Of a DNA stretch of 44,242 nt, positions 8,603 through 31,601 are shown piece by piece; the first letter of the stretch is position 1, and every line of letters starts with the position of its first letter. Origin of the DNA: an uncultured Gammaproteobacteria bacterium (GTDB taxonomy: Bacteria; Patescibacteriota; Microgenomatia; UBA8517); contig CAZTVZ010000001.1 in the NCBI GenBank assembly GCA_964617045.1, forward strand, positions 90,521 through 134,762, written 5' to 3'. The position numbers were made by a program, and so were the translations under genes. Under the pieces are notes generated by a model. The model had not been told where the DNA came from. It did not search any database and saw only the letters and a program-made list of their open reading frames with translations.

Positions 8603-8613
8603 GTAACCAAAGA

Positions 8614-8649
8614 GGGGTAAATTCTCATAAGAAGTTTACCCCTTTTTTT
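8614..8649 (+). terminator. Intrinsic terminator of cassette A
   Basis: GGGGTAAATTCT-CATA-AGAAGTTTACCCC followed by a T tract. Confidence 0.85.
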
Positions 8650-11768: not shown

Positions 11769-12145
11769 TTCGGGCATTGTACACGAGGTAAATTAATAAT
11801 TCCATTGGAATATAAATTAGCCTCAAATATAACCTCACCAAATCGATTCTAAGGCCTGTCTAAATGAAAAGACGACTATCTATTCATCCCGTACTATTGG
11901 GCTTTTATGCAAATCGTTATTTTTATTATTAACACTATTTTGTAACTATTTTTCACAAACACTGGAAAACAGGGGAGGGGTACTAAACGATAAAATTCAT
12001 TTCGGGATAGTTTCGGTCGGAGAAAATAAATATCGAACATCAAAAACAGGGAAAATACATAGTAGTACAGTTACTTTTCGTTTTTTATGCCAGACATGTT
12101 CCTTAGCATACACTGACCTTATCCCTACCCTTACATTTTTAGAAT

Positions 12146-12173
12146 AGGTCGCAAAAGTTACATTGTGCGACTT
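12146..12173. other. Candidate dif-like Xer recombination site (11-6-11)
   Basis: AGGTCGCAAAA-GTTACA-TTGTGCGACTT; arms are 9/11 complementary. It lies in the long intergenic gap about 1.1 kb from xer, near the gene-strand switch. Confidence 0.5.
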
Positions 12174-12359
12174 ACCATATTCAAAGAGGCTGGGATGAAT
12201 AAATCATTAATTAATAAGTATTCAATACCATCGAGGGATAATCTAAAAAACATTGTGTAATAAATTTTAAAGGGTCTTCCCCGGTTGTTCCGTCTATCTA
12301 ACCGTTACACGCCTAGAAAGAGCGAAAGAGGCTCTTGTAGGCATATTAGCCTTGAAAAG

Positions 12360-12368
12360 TTATCCACA
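12360..12368 (+). promoter_or_regulatory. Consensus DnaA box
   Basis: TTATCCACA exact match; TTTTTCACA at 11949-11957 also fits TTWTNCACA. Confidence 0.45.
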
Positions 12369-12634
12369 GAGAGAAGGTTTAGAGGAATAATTACGTGTTT
12401 TCGTGCCTAGTAACTATATCATTGTGTATCACCATTTACCCCCAAGGGAAGTTTCGGGTTTTTTCCGCAATACGATTTGTCGCAAATTGTGAAAATTGTG
12501 AAGTATATTTGTGAAAATTAGCACTCCCCAGTCTTGATTAATAACCTATAATTATAGGGTGTGTACTACCCTCTCTCCCCTTGTCGGGGTATGTTTAAAT
12601 TTTTTTCTTATTTTGTGCGTAATCTGAAGCTAAT

Positions 12635-13405
12635 TTATAAACCCCATTTCGTGGCTATGAACATTCCAATAAAAACAAGCCCAACCATGAAAAGATATTC
12701 CCTCAGAGTTTGTGAGAATAATCTACCCTCCCACAGAGCCTGACCTAAACCTACCAACATGTAAATTGCCATAGTTAAAAACAACGAACCGACAACAACC
12801 GTAACCGGCCAAAAGAATAAAGACGCTGCAATCTCCCCCACTATCAAACTAGAAATCAAACTGTATGTAACTATTTCTTTTGAAAATTCGTTTTTTAAAT
12901 CTACCTGCCAAATTCCCTGAACCATTAATGGAAATGCTAATGCGGCAATAGACAGTGCAGTGATGGGGAGGAGAGTTCTTAAAGACAATATTGCATCAAA
13001 AACAAGGAACGAAGTGACAAGTGTGAGTACAAATCCAACACCGCGAGCGGCCCTCAACAGTGCAATTGTTCTTACAGCAGAAACGGTAAAAATATTCATT
13101 GTTAATGCAAGTATGTAGATGCCTATTCCGAAAAACAAAATTATCGGGATTCTGGTAAACACACTTGAAGGAAGAAGGAACCAAAAAATTCCCACACCCA
13201 ATGTAAACATAGTAGGTAAAATTAGTGTAAGAAGAGTCGCGTTTTTGCCGATTCCTTCGCGTAAACTAAACCAAAAAAGTCCCGTTGTCAGAAGTCCCAA
13301 TAATCCGATTGCAGGAAACTTAAATCTTTCATCTAACAGCTGTATACCGATAAATCCCAAGGAAAGGAGAATGGAAGTTAATACAAATTTACGTCTTTTG
13401 CTCAT
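12635..13405 (-). CDS. Multi-pass membrane protein of unknown function (possibly DUF5656-like)
   Basis: About 8-9 hydrophobic segments, directly downstream of yebC; the family label is from memory and uncertain. Confidence 0.75.
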   Translation of the reverse strand: MSKRRKFVLTSILLSLGFIGIQLLDERFKFPAIGLLGLLTTGLFWFSLREGIGKNATLLTLILPTMFTLGVGIFWFLLPSSVFTRIPIILFFGIGIYILALTMNIFTVSAVRTIALLRAARGVGFVLTLVTSFLVFDAILSLRTLLPITALSIAALAFPLMVQGIWQVDLKNEFSKEIVTYSLISSLIVGEIAASLFFWPVTVVVGSLFLTMAIYMLVGLGQALWEGRLFSQTLREYLFMVGLVFIGMFIATKWGL

Positions 13406-14167: not shown

Positions 14168-14229
14168 ATAAAAAGCCCTTTCGGACTTGGGATATTATAC
14201 CTCATAGGCCACTCCCCTTTCAAACCACG

Positions 14230-14281
14230 AAAAACCCGAGGCTTGTAGATGGCATAAGCCAAATACTTACCTCGGGTAAGT
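14230..14281 (-). terminator. Terminator-like 3' element of cassette C with an alternative fold
   Basis: ACCCGAGG/CCTCGGGT plus TTTT; competing ACTTACC-CGA-GGTAAGT hairpin. Confidence 0.6.
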
Positions 14282-14293
14282 CATACTGCGAAT

Positions 14294-14449
14294 TTAATAC
14301 GATCCAAGTATTGCAAGGATAATAATTAGTATTACAAGCAAAAAAGCACAAAGAGCTGAAATTGATGCTTCAAAGATATGCCTTAATGTTTGCACGACCC
14401 TTCCTATTTTTCTTTTTTCTTCCCTCAAGTCGGCCATGGCAACCACCAT
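14294..14449 (-). CDS. Small membrane protein, 51 aa
   Basis: TAATG coupling to the upstream ORF; MVVAMADLREEKRK...SALCAFLLVILIIILAILGSY* with a C-terminal TM segment. Confidence 0.6.
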   Translation of the reverse strand: MVVAMADLREEKRKIGRVVQTLRHIFEASISALCAFLLVILIIILAILGSY

Positions 14450-14583
14450 TATGGTATCGCCGGACCGCCAACAAGCGGAATAATTACAAATAGGATTACG
14501 ATCGCAATAACAATGAACCAAAATGTTTCTTTTGCGCTTGGTGTTGTGTTAGGATCTCGAACATACTTAATCTGTTTGGACAT
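14449..14583 (-). CDS. Small single-pass membrane protein, 44 aa (missed by the ORF track)
   Basis: GGAGG SD inside the end of the upstream ORF; MSKQIKYVRDPNTTPSAKETFWFIVIAIVILFVIIPLVGGPAIP*. Confidence 0.7.
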   Translation of the reverse strand: MSKQIKYVRDPNTTPSAKETFWFIVIAIVILFVIIPLVGGPAIP

Positions 14584-14584
14584 T

Positions 14585-14785
14585 TTATCCTCCTGAACCG
14601 GCATATTTACTGCAAATGTTTGTTAACAAGATCAAAAAATACCACAAGGTAACAATGGTTGCCACGCCAAAGGCAGTCGCAACATCTGCAGCGGATCTTT
14701 TTGTCAACACTAAGTAAGCAGTTGTTCCCCACAAAAGACCGGCCGAAAGCACAAAAGCTAAAGGAATAATTAACTCGATTACCAT
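14585..14785 (-). CDS. Small two-pass membrane protein, 66 aa
   Basis: GAAAGGAGG SD; two hydrophobic helices. Confidence 0.75.
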   Translation of the reverse strand: MVIELIIPLAFVLSAGLLWGTTAYLVLTKRSAADVATAFGVATIVTLWYFLILLTNICSKYAGSGG

Positions 14786-14830
14786 TTTTCCTCCTTTCTT
14801 CGCAGTATGTTAAAGAGCAAATTTCGCTAC

Positions 14831-14874
14831 AAAAAAAGCTCCTCTTTGGTAAGGCTAACCTTGCCACTGGAGCT
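14831..14874 (-). terminator. Leader terminator/attenuator of cassette C
   Basis: AGCTCC...TGGCAAGG-TTAG-CCTTACCA...GGAGCT followed by a T tract, between the promoter and the first ORF. Confidence 0.65.
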
Positions 14875-14893
14875 CCTCTTGAGCAGTGTGGGT

Positions 14894-14922
14894 ATTATAT
14901 CACATTATGGGTCATTTGTCAA
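14894..14922 (-). promoter_or_regulatory. Consensus sigma70 promoter of cassette C
   Basis: TTGACA-17 nt-TATAAT with extended TG. Confidence 0.85.
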
Positions 14923-14946
14923 GTACTTGGGTTTTAAATTAGGCAT

Positions 14947-14983
14947 AAAAAGGGGGTAATTTCCTTGTTAGGATTTTACCCCC
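14947..14983 (-). terminator. Intrinsic terminator of cassette D
   Basis: GGGGGTAAAATCCT-AACA-AGGAAATTACCCCC plus TTTTT. Confidence 0.85.
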
Positions 14984-14987
14984 ACTT

Positions 14988-16119
14988 CACTTCATCAGAT
15001 CGGATATTGCCTTACTACCAAATGGTTCAATGCCTCAATACGCACCTGCATGTCTTTGATCAGGTTTGCGTCCTCGAATTCGCATGCATATTCGAATTGT
15101 TTTGGACTATGTGCATTGATCATCATTCCTGAAATGATTTGGTTCATCATTCCCAAATCACACCAAAAAGCCTCAGTACAAGCAATTTCTACCCATTCGC
15201 GGTACTCATCGGCAAGGGTGATTGCCCTATCAAGAAGATTCTTGTAAATACCAGGGTCGTCATGCAACTTAGGCTCATACTCCTTAATATAAAACATTAT
15301 CTGTTCGAAATTGCCAATCAAATTTACTGCTGTACTGATAGCCTCAGGCTGATATCTATTTGATTGTTCGAATACAAGCTGACAATCTTCAGGCATAACT
15401 TCCTCTTCCTTGAGAAGTTGAGCACATGCTTTTTCCTTCGCATCTACCGCTTTCTTGGATATTTCTTGCGCTTCAACTTCAATCACTTGATTAAGTTCGT
15501 CGACTCCCGAGGCAAGTTCACATGCTTTTAAGTATGCATTTTCGGCTATTGCCAGATACTCGGCATTGGTTTGGAATTCAACGTTATTTGATGCGACTTC
15601 GTAAACTCCAAAATAGTCAGAAAATGTTTTGGCCATACAATGGCTCTTTCGTAAAAGGTGCAGCTGTGTTTTCTTCTCCTCAATGTATTCAAATATGGGA
15701 ATCGCCATATCCGTTCTGCCGGCATCCAAAATTGCACTTCGAATAATCTCCCATTTCCATTCCGAACTTATGTCCGGATCTGATTGAATCAGACGCAACG
15801 CCGTTTTAATTTCATCGGTGTAATGAGAGTATATATATATCTTATTGAGCAGATCCTTTTTTTCCTTGGCTCTCTCATGCTGATCTTTGACCTGGTCATA
15901 CATCCTCAATTCCCATAATTCCAAAAAGTTGTTAAAGGATGCTCCGGAATACGAATATAATTCGGCCTTTACCTTTTTCTCAATCTTTTTCCCTCTTGAT
16001 ACACATACCTTGGCATATTCCATCCATGCTCTACGGGTTCCAATACGGCCGGCAAGATACCGCAATAAAAATAACGGTGCTTTCATTTTTCCCTCCTTTG
16101 GGTTAAATCTGATGAAATG
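14988..16119 (-). repeat. Cassette D closing inverted repeat (arms 16119-16107 and 15000-14988)
   Basis: CATTTCATCAGAT / ATCTGATGAAGTG, 13 bp with one U-G wobble in the sense RNA; the right arm contains the TGA stop. Confidence 0.8.
14995..16086 (-). CDS. Hypothetical alpha-helical (repeat-like) protein, 363 aa
   Basis: Start moved to MKAPLF because AAAGGAGG precedes ATG 16086; no recognisable catalytic motif. Confidence 0.8.
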   Translation of the reverse strand: MKAPLFLLRYLAGRIGTRRAWMEYAKVCVSRGKKIEKKVKAELYSYSGASFNNFLELWELRMYDQVKDQHERAKEKKDLLNKIYIYSHYTDEIKTALRLIQSDPDISSEWKWEIIRSAILDAGRTDMAIPIFEYIEEKKTQLHLLRKSHCMAKTFSDYFGVYEVASNNVEFQTNAEYLAIAENAYLKACELASGVDELNQVIEVEAQEISKKAVDAKEKACAQLLKEEEVMPEDCQLVFEQSNRYQPEAISTAVNLIGNFEQIMFYIKEYEPKLHDDPGIYKNLLDRAITLADEYREWVEIACTEAFWCDLGMMNQIISGMMINAHSPKQFEYACEFEDANLIKDMQVRIEALNHLVVRQYPI

Positions 16120-16179
16120 TAAAAGTACAGTGCTTACAGTAAGCACAAATTAACTTTGAGCATAATTTCAAAGTGCCTG

Positions 16180-18674: not shown

Positions 18675-18695
18675 GAGAGTATTTTAACACGAAGA

Positions 18696-19082
18696 TTAAC
18701 TCTCTCTTTTTTTCTGGCATGAAGTGCACAGTGTGGCTTCCGGATATATGGAAAGTCTGTCGGTATCGATCATCTTTCCACAGTCTTCACAAAGTCCATA
18801 CTTTCCCTTTTCAAGTCTTTTCAAAGCTTTTTTGGTTTGATCGATTTTCTTGTTTAATTCTTTTTTAATTGCCGCAGTTCGCGCATGACCGAATTGTTCA
18901 TCTGCTTCCGTATCAGGAGCTGCATTATCGGAAACCCTCAAATCATTCTTGAAAGGATCTTCCTTTTCTATTGTTTTCTTTCTTAAGGTCAATTTTTGTA
19001 AGTTTTCCTTTAAAAAGACTCCAATAGGACTAAGCAGGTTTGTCGGAAACATTACTTTTTTATTTTCTTCTTTCTTGCTCAT
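18696..19082 (-). CDS. TraR/DksA C4-type zinc-finger protein
   Basis: Coiled coil plus YGLCEDCG...RL...P.ATLCTSC. Confidence 0.88.
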   Translation of the reverse strand: MSKKEENKKVMFPTNLLSPIGVFLKENLQKLTLRKKTIEKEDPFKNDLRVSDNAAPDTEADEQFGHARTAAIKKELNKKIDQTKKALKRLEKGKYGLCEDCGKMIDTDRLSIYPEATLCTSCQKKRES

Positions 19083-20882: not shown

Positions 20883-20921
20883 AAAAAAAGCCCTTCCAGA
20901 CTGTTAAGTCAAAGAAGGGCT
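20883..20921 (-). terminator. Intrinsic terminator of cassette E (abuts the tRNA 3' end)
   Basis: AGCCCTTC...GAAGGGCT plus T tract on the minus strand; inner GACT-TAAC-AGTC hairpin. Confidence 0.8.
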
Positions 20922-31565: not shown

Positions 31566-31601
31566 AAAAGGGTGACTCCTCTATAACAGAATTGTCACCC
31601 T
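31564..31601 (-). terminator. Intrinsic terminator between convergent genes
   Basis: AGGGTGAC/GTCACCCT stem with a T tract on the minus strand. Confidence 0.8.

Follow-up and report, generated by a model that had tools for sequence, protein, structure and literature searches.

In leader-peptide attenuators of the Escherichia coli pyrBI type, translation across the terminator blocks that terminator, and STAB-SD elements and 5' stem-loops have stabilizing roles in Firmicutes. To our knowledge, almost nothing has been established experimentally about RNA-level gene control in CPR/Patescibacteria. Leader terminators that come without an annotated sensor are common and were catalogued by Naville and Gautheret (2010; PMC2965389). 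Leader terminators were also mapped by Term-seq (Adams et al., 2021; PMC7815308), and ChiZ and IspZ of E. coli are 5' UTR-derived small RNAs that arise from such premature termination (PMC7815308).

We analyzed a stretch of 44,242 nt (the window) in which a leader on the minus strand lies ahead of three small open reading frames, P1, P2, and P3. The explanation that we favor, with a probability of roughly 0.58, is that the leader holds a promoter-proximal intrinsic terminator that acts as an attenuator for an orphan operon of three membrane-protein ORFs and releases an RNA of ∼57 nt. All of the components that had been pointed out in an earlier note on this DNA are present. We compared them across five leader haplotypes taken from contigs of other samples, with identities of 88 to 99%, and the coordinates of the features are collected in Table 1.

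Table 1. Features of the leader element, its cassette, and the terminators compared with it (window coordinates)
Feature	Coordinates	Strand	Description or basis
Promoter -35, TTGACA	14922..14917	minus	17-nt spacer to -10
Promoter TG and -10, TATAAT	TG 14902..14901; -10 14899..14894	minus	extended -10
Predicted ∼57-nt leader RNA	14831..14887	minus	inferred from promoter geometry and terminator
Weak alternative 5' hairpin, CACUGCUC-AAGAG-GAGC-UCC-AGUG	14865..14888	minus	includes CACUG/CAGUG; competes for terminator 5' arm
Direct repeat copy 1, AAGAGGAGCU	14871..14880	minus	final 4 nt are the start of the terminator 5' arm
Two-tier terminator hairpin (predicted)	14837..14874	minus	base stem AGCUCC/GGAGCU, 2x4 internal loop, upper stem UGGCAAGG/CCUUACCA, loop UUAG
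Direct repeat copy 2, AAGAGGAGCU	14837..14846	minus	internal-loop 3' side and base-stem 3' arm
U tract, 7 T	14831..14837	minus	6, 7, or 8 T in other strains
Leader 3' of terminator, with SD AAAGGAGG	14786..14830	minus	85-87% identity between haplotypes
P1, 66 aa, two predicted transmembrane helices	14585..14785	minus	gene calls on near-identical public contigs
P2, 44 aa, one transmembrane helix	14449..14583	minus	2 amino-acid changes between haplotypes, conserved
P3, 51 aa, C-terminal transmembrane helix	14294..14449	minus	start overlaps P2 stop (TAATG)
Cassette-end intrinsic terminator, ACCCGAGG...CCUCGGGU then U5	14234..14277	minus	-26.7 kcal/mol
Intrinsic terminator of upstream 363-aa orphan gene, GGGGGUAAAAUCCUAACAAGGAAAUUACCCCC then U run	14952..14983	minus	hairpin-plus-T-run scan, dG -17.5 kcal/mol
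Gene-end terminators ranking near the leader hairpin	8612-8644	plus	hairpin scan
	14234-14277, 14952-14983, 20889-20921, 31569-31601	minus	hairpin scan

The earlier note had described a perfect promoter followed by a leader of ∼100 nt ahead of the Shine-Dalgarno (SD) sequence and the ORFs, and both hold. The promoter (14894..14922), of the sigma-70 type, matches the consensus at 12 of 12 positions in the window allele and also has the extended -10; no other site in the 40 kb scanned reaches 12/12. The minus-strand leader runs for ∼102 nt from this promoter to P1, with the SD ∼45 nt beyond the U tract and the P1 ATG at 14785. The -35 hexamer is identical in all haplotypes and the -10 differs at one position, being TATAAT or TATATT, the latter in most strains, while the 20 nt directly 5' of the promoter vary freely between strains. 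Transcription is predicted to start at A14887, possibly at A14889. Upstream, the 363-aa orphan gene (14995-16086) ends at 14995 on the minus strand and is followed by its own terminator, and the leader promoter therefore begins a separate transcription unit. At the other end, the cassette runs into a terminator that is the top hairpin-plus-T-run site of the window and almost invariant across strains, with the yebC promoter directly beyond it.

The yebC unit itself has an 11/12 promoter (TTGAAA-18-TATAAT; window 14173-14223, minus strand). A small hairpin, AAGUCCGAAAGGGCUU, sits at the extreme 5' end of its transcript and ends 5 nt before the ATG. There is no clear SD in this leader outside the hairpin, and the region is 97 to 99% conserved between strains.

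The leader RNA reads ACUGCUC-AAGAGG-AGCUCC-AG-UGGCAAGG-UUAG-CCUUACCA-AAGA-GGAGCU-UUUUUU. In its base stem, AGCUCC (14874..14869) pairs with GGAGCU (14842..14837) in 6 bp, 4 of which are G-C pairs; in the upper stem, of eight positions, UGGCAAGG (14866..14859) faces CCUUACCA (14854..14847), and the internal loop between the stems has AG on its 5' side and AAGA on its 3' side. The long hairpin with its U tract that the earlier note had claimed thus exists in both parts, with two corrections: the upper stem of the window carries one C.A mismatch (7/8 paired), and the first T of the tract closes the stem, leaving only 6 U unpaired. With the flanking A/U pairing, the terminator fold reaches -21 to -24 kcal/mol and is dominant in the ensemble. 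Compared with 200 dinucleotide shuffles, none of which was as stable, a 61-nt RNA has a folding z-score of -3.1 and the 106-nt leader one of -3.3.

The direct repeat reported for this leader is present twice as well, AAGAGGAGCT occurring in the window in two exact copies only (14880..14871 and 14846..14837), but it is not invariant across strains: copy 1 becomes AAAAGGAGCU in haplotype E (L107) and copy 2 becomes AUGAGGAGCU in haplotypes C and D. Six of the 10 repeated bases follow from the palindrome GGAGCUCC, which is the base stem, and we attach no separate function to the 10-nt repeat. A reading of the hairpin as an integron attC-like element was dropped by eye, GTTAGCC not fitting GTTRRRY. 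We also rejected a helix 3' of the terminator that would sequester the SD (CUCUUU with AAGGAG), which is weak in the window and weaker still in other haplotypes.

To place the hairpin among the terminators of its own genome, we searched the two strands for single hairpins followed by a run of 5 or more T. Of the 35 sites found, the leader hairpin is the fifth best, and the sites ranking near it include five gene-end terminators. These five and the leader hairpin have similar energies and a common two-tier design, in which a GC-rich base stem is followed by an internal loop (symmetric in the gene-end terminators) and a short upper stem capped by a tetraloop. Three of the five also drew weak secondary matches from a covariance model of the haplotypes. 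With a GC-containing stem-loop, a directly adjacent U tract, and this likeness to the gene-end terminators, the leader hairpin reads as a terminator by the standards of its genome. The earlier proposal that the leader terminates transcription to yield a short RNA, of 55 to 60 nt in that note and ∼57 nt here, with a predicted end near 14831, is strengthened by an architecture and strength equal to those of gene-end terminators and by its retention in five haplotypes. A simple consensus scanner misses all five of the gene-end terminators and the leader hairpin.

The strain comparison shows which parts of the element are kept. The base stem, the UUAG loop, the -35 hexamer, and at least 6 T are unchanged in 5/5 haplotypes. 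Haplotypes B and E share a linked set of four upper-stem changes that turns UGGCAAGG/CCUUACCA (7/8 paired) into UGAUGAGG/CCUUAUCA (8/8 paired) through one double change from G-C to A-U, one repair from C.A to U-A, and one change from A-U to G-U. These changes take the hairpin energy from -15.7 kcal/mol in the window to -19.5 kcal/mol (haplotype B), a value equalled by 2.4% of random five-transition sets. They are non-synonymous in the overlapping GUG frame, which argues that the RNA structure and not a peptide is being kept. The earlier note had staked its proposal on structural conservation in homologous leaders, and this was borne out within a single lineage, the hairpin being kept in every haplotype with changes that preserve pairing. 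There are only two independent versions of the hairpin, a pair-count control is not significant (176/500 shuffles), and the conservation of the leader (88%) does not exceed that of the genomic background (∼89 to 90%). T-run length varies between strains at more than one place, with 6, 7, or 8 T at the leader terminator and 5 to 8 at the terminator of the upstream gene (14946-14951).

We place the host, from the gene content and protein similarity of the window, as an uncultured, ultrasmall CPR bacterium of the class Microgenomatia that is Woesebacteria/Levybacteria-like. DUF5656 adjoins yebC in the window, and a search with YebC of GTDB species representatives gave its closest match in Woesebacteria (57% amino acid identity), with 49% in Levyibacteriota. 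In this Woesebacteria relative (L011:3360-4741), a TPR gene abuts yebC and the 363-aa gene, the cassette, and the leader are absent; the 363-aa gene and the cassette (14294-16146, ∼1.9 kb) are therefore a lineage-specific insert. We found the leader element and its genes only in one species-level Microgenomatia lineage (88 to 99% identity), and anaerobic digesters, sludge, and wastewater are the sources of the public runs that contain the locus. A search of JGI metagenome and viral contigs with the pattern GAGGAGCTCC-N18-30-GAGGAGCTTTTT returned five matches, all in coding sequence and none a homologue; among them are two copies of one locus and one other in L29-like genes, and we read all five as chance. 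The covariance model of the five haplotypes, run against the window and 40 other loci, found no second copy.

Two other regions of the window deserve a mention. A related strain (L091:768-2338) has ∼1.6 kb extra relative to window ∼18692-18696, a segment that carries opposite-strand genes of 308 and 79 aa and lies between a DksA/TraR-type zinc-finger gene and a pseudouridine synthase gene. Positions 11777-12635 form 858 nt without a credible ORF; they have no Rfam match (best E = 0.32, noise), their conservation between strains, 74 to 93%, is not above background, and there is no sign of a structured RNA.

The proteins encoded downstream of the leader are orphans. Searches of 5.8 billion proteins with P1, P2, and the 363-aa protein found strain variants of one species-level lineage only, P1 had a single other representative among 1.84 billion, from the same lineage, and P2 had no relative in JGI metagenome contigs. 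Pfam, NCBIfam, PHROGs, and PADLOC gave nothing significant for P1 to P3 and the 363-aa protein, and phage and plasmid collections gave no match. P1, which has 60 aa in other strains, diverges fast between strains, with a nucleotide identity between haplotypes of only 76.6% against ∼89 to 97% in the flanks. The 363-aa gene shows 82.5% nucleotide identity between strains against 89 to 97% in its neighbors, and P1 has at least three allele types that are shuffled relative to the leader haplotypes; the shuffling and the fast divergence of both genes would indicate recombination or diversifying selection. We also considered a type I toxin-antitoxin locus, in which a small hydrophobic protein goes with an overlapping or complementary antisense RNA. 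Small transmembrane proteins are present, but we rejected this candidate because the leader RNA is transcribed from the cassette's own strand and shows no complementarity to it; the sole opposite-strand promoter-like site is weak (9/12, 14294..14323).

Public sequencing runs labelled as RNA give a partial view of expression. They consist of low-depth contigs in which 5' and 3' ends cannot be read, and libraries of this kind would lose a 57-nt RNA. In the cDNA-labelled wastewater runs X26, X27, and X39, a 20-kb stretch of this genome yielded full-length, near-identical contigs only in the cassette ORFs; the other matches were pieces of 35 to 50 nt that came from conserved genes or tRNA of other organisms. 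One cDNA contig (14582-14839) crosses the U tract and reaches the hairpin's 3' arm. Several other runs labelled RNA-Seq cover the promoter and its flanks at equal depth and may contain DNA. Since the cassette is expressed in RNA-labelled runs, read-through occurs, and since it is apparently well expressed, termination is not near-complete under those conditions; the data suggest an active promoter and read-through by a good share of the transcripts. In run X36, a contig matching window 14727-14979 has a 17-nt loose end that copies 14956-14972 and has the look of a fold-back (snap-back) artefact arising at the hairpin of the upstream terminator.

We propose that RNA polymerase initiates at about A14887, at the strongest promoter of the window, and that after ∼50 nt the nascent RNA would form the two-tier hairpin directly adjoining 6 to 8 U. 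A share of the complexes would release the ∼57-nt RNA, whether by-product or product, at the U tract, and the rest would read through to give a P1-P2-P3 mRNA that ends at the strong terminator at 14277..14234. Such an attenuator would scale down, and possibly gate, the output of a near-consensus promoter, and it would do so without a ligand-binding aptamer. Termination at the U tract, the fraction of complexes that terminate, and the regulation of that fraction are what we infer from sequence. If the fraction is regulated, the candidates are a weak 5' mini-hairpin and ribosome loading at an SD-like GAGGAG together with GUG 14867, both of which overlap the 5' arm of the terminator. To place a strong terminator after the best promoter with no evident sensor seems wasteful, and this hints at a hidden regulator.

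The 5' mini-hairpin leads to the question of a riboswitch. The earlier note had seen that an upstream CACUG could pair with CAGUG in the 5' arm of the hairpin and had proposed a conditional terminator, possibly a riboswitch, of no class that it recognized. The last point agrees with our searches, in which Rfam 15 gave no relevant match in the whole window at gathering thresholds and, at E <= 10 on 14550-15050, only three noise matches of 11.7 to 15.6 bits. The complementarity also exists, CACUG (14888..14884) being the reverse complement of CAGUG (14869..14865), and the two folds are mutually exclusive, as would suit conditional terminators, which typically use two alternative folds (PMC5314783). 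As an anti-terminator, however, the helix falls short. Its 5 bp are worth -3.6 kcal/mol alone and -7.6 kcal/mol when stacked on the GCUC/GAGC mini-hairpin, which requires transcription to begin no later than 14888; should it begin at 14887, the mini-hairpin alone forms (-4.8 kcal/mol), and against -21 to -24 kcal/mol for the terminator fold the pair probability of the alternative at equilibrium is ∼0. It can pair in the three haplotypes counted, through G-U wobbles and with no double change, and it is weakest exactly in the haplotypes with the strongest terminator. A riboswitch, or a protein-dependent antiterminator of the RAT/BglG kind, in which a ligand or an RNA-binding protein would stabilize the 5' hairpin (CACUGCUC...GAGC..AGUG) and so block the terminator, is thus very improbable. 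Only 8 to 13 nt separate the predicted start from the terminator stem, which leaves no room for an aptamer, no gene for an RNA-binding regulator is adjacent, the neighboring proteins being orphans, and the element is limited to one lineage. We found neither an aptamer nor a described class, neither competing folds of comparable strength nor recurrence across taxa near related genes, and we conclude that the leader is no riboswitch and represents no new class of them. Even so, the mini-hairpin could compete with the terminator transiently, on a kinetic basis, and make it leaky. Among conditional mechanisms, the leading rival is a ribosome that loads at the SD-like GAGGAG (14878..14873), starts at GUG 14867, and translates an upstream ORF across the hairpin and U tract, thereby blocking the terminator, so that read-through would track translational capacity or a stalling signal; we consider this unlikely and do not adopt it as the main explanation. 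Repeat copy 1 does place GAGGAG 5 nt 5' of the GUG within the 5' arm of the terminator, motif, spacer, and GUG recur in the haplotypes compared (AAGGAG in haplotype E), and in every haplotype the ORF extends across the entire hairpin and the U tract. It is also short in other strains (13, 14, 18, 18, and 28 codons), its stop overlaps the P1 start in haplotype C (AUGA), and nowhere in the window but in the leader do three AGGAG motifs fall within 105 nt. This clustering loses significance once the genuine SD is discounted, and in the window allele the frame has no stop in the leader and runs for 86 codons, out of frame across P1. Because the T run has 6, 7, or 8 T, neither the frame after the U tract nor the stop position is conserved, and the stem changes alter the encoded residues, leaving no conserved peptide. 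Moreover, the GUG lies only ∼36 nt before the end of the U tract, so that coupling would need a polymerase pause, for which we found no evidence. An SD-like motif, a start codon, and an ORF overlapping the terminator are therefore all in place, whereas a conserved frame, stop, or set of regulatory codons is not.

The hairpin may instead matter for the RNA that it ends or for the mRNA that it heads. The ∼57-nt transcript could be the functional product, either as a trans-acting small RNA or as a GGAG-exposing sponge for a protein or ribosomes, with read-through into the ORFs secondary. Promoter, ∼57 nt, and terminator do make a complete small unit under the best promoter of the window, a predicted single-stranded 5' end of 7 to 13 nt followed by a terminator hairpin is the usual small-RNA layout, and E. 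coli offers documented cases of short 5' UTR-derived RNAs that function in their own right (PMC7815308). A duplex scan of the 57-nt RNA against the window, however, gave only self and antisense matches and no convincing target, there is no second copy and no relative outside the lineage, and the supposed seed varies, with G to A in haplotype E, all of which makes this reading improbable. Little more can be said for a 5'-proximal stabilizing stem-loop, possibly with a sequence of the STAB-SD kind, that would shield the mRNA from 5'-end-dependent decay without useful termination. It would explain the high abundance of cassette transcripts, the cassette ORFs being the best-represented part of 20 kb in cDNA runs. 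The stem lies 3 to 8 nt from the predicted 5' end, 3 to 4 nt in the full-length fold, with the SD-like GAGGAG at +10, and the neighboring units also have promoter-near hairpins (the YebC leader at 14188..14173 and the leader of the 363-aa gene at 16146..16130). A stabilizer would not need a U tract, yet 6 to 8 U directly follow the GC-rich base stem in every haplotype, and the structure matches the real terminators of the genome; we consider this explanation improbable. A regulatory device specific to CPR bacteria and of an undescribed kind is a comparably long shot: read-through could be set by 30S or ribosome capture at the SD mimic, or the ∼57-nt RNA, with two GGAG SD mimics, could act in trans on ribosomes or an RNA-binding protein. 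If either version were true, the expression of orphan, fast-evolving membrane proteins would be tied to translational state.

As a probable attenuating terminator in a leader, the element is of an ordinary type and known from one lineage, in a poorly studied phylum. The locus offers a clean, compact, and testable case, in which a consensus promoter and a canonical terminator precede the genes for three orphan membrane proteins with apparently high expression in wastewater communities. Confirmed termination would mean that classic leader attenuation is at work in reduced CPR genomes, and the locus would supply a natural promoter-terminator pair for work in these organisms.

Set against described systems, the leader does not fit the two-fold architecture of conditional terminators treated by PASIFIC (Millman et al., 2016; PMC5314783). 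Both have a segment further upstream that is able to pair with the terminator's 5' arm, but here the alternative helix reaches only -4.8 to -7.6 kcal/mol where the terminator has -21 to -24 kcal/mol, and there is neither an aptamer nor an Rfam match. With leader-peptide attenuators, of the E. coli pyrBI type and of Streptococcus gallolyticus pil1 (PMC3894217), the leader shares an SD-like motif and a short ORF across the terminator; it differs from them in an ORF that ranges from 13 to 86 codons with frame and stop not conserved, in having no regulatory codons or repeat tract before the terminator, and in showing no evidence of a pause site. Like ChiZ and IspZ (PMC7815308), the predicted RNA is a short transcript from the promoter of the mRNA itself that would end at a leader terminator, although, unlike them, it has no target in our duplex scan of the window. 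The closest likeness is to the leader attenuators catalogued and mapped in bacteria (PMC2965389, PMC7815308). From these the present leader differs in having no recognizable aptamer, T-box, conserved leader peptide, or protein-binding repeat, in a hairpin that begins only 8 to 13 nt past the start, and in the genes under its control, which are lineage-specific orphans of a CPR bacterium. It shares with them the promoter, the short leader, and the GC-rich hairpin with a U tract followed by the SD and the genes, and the expected outcome is likewise a short 5' RNA together with a read-through mRNA.
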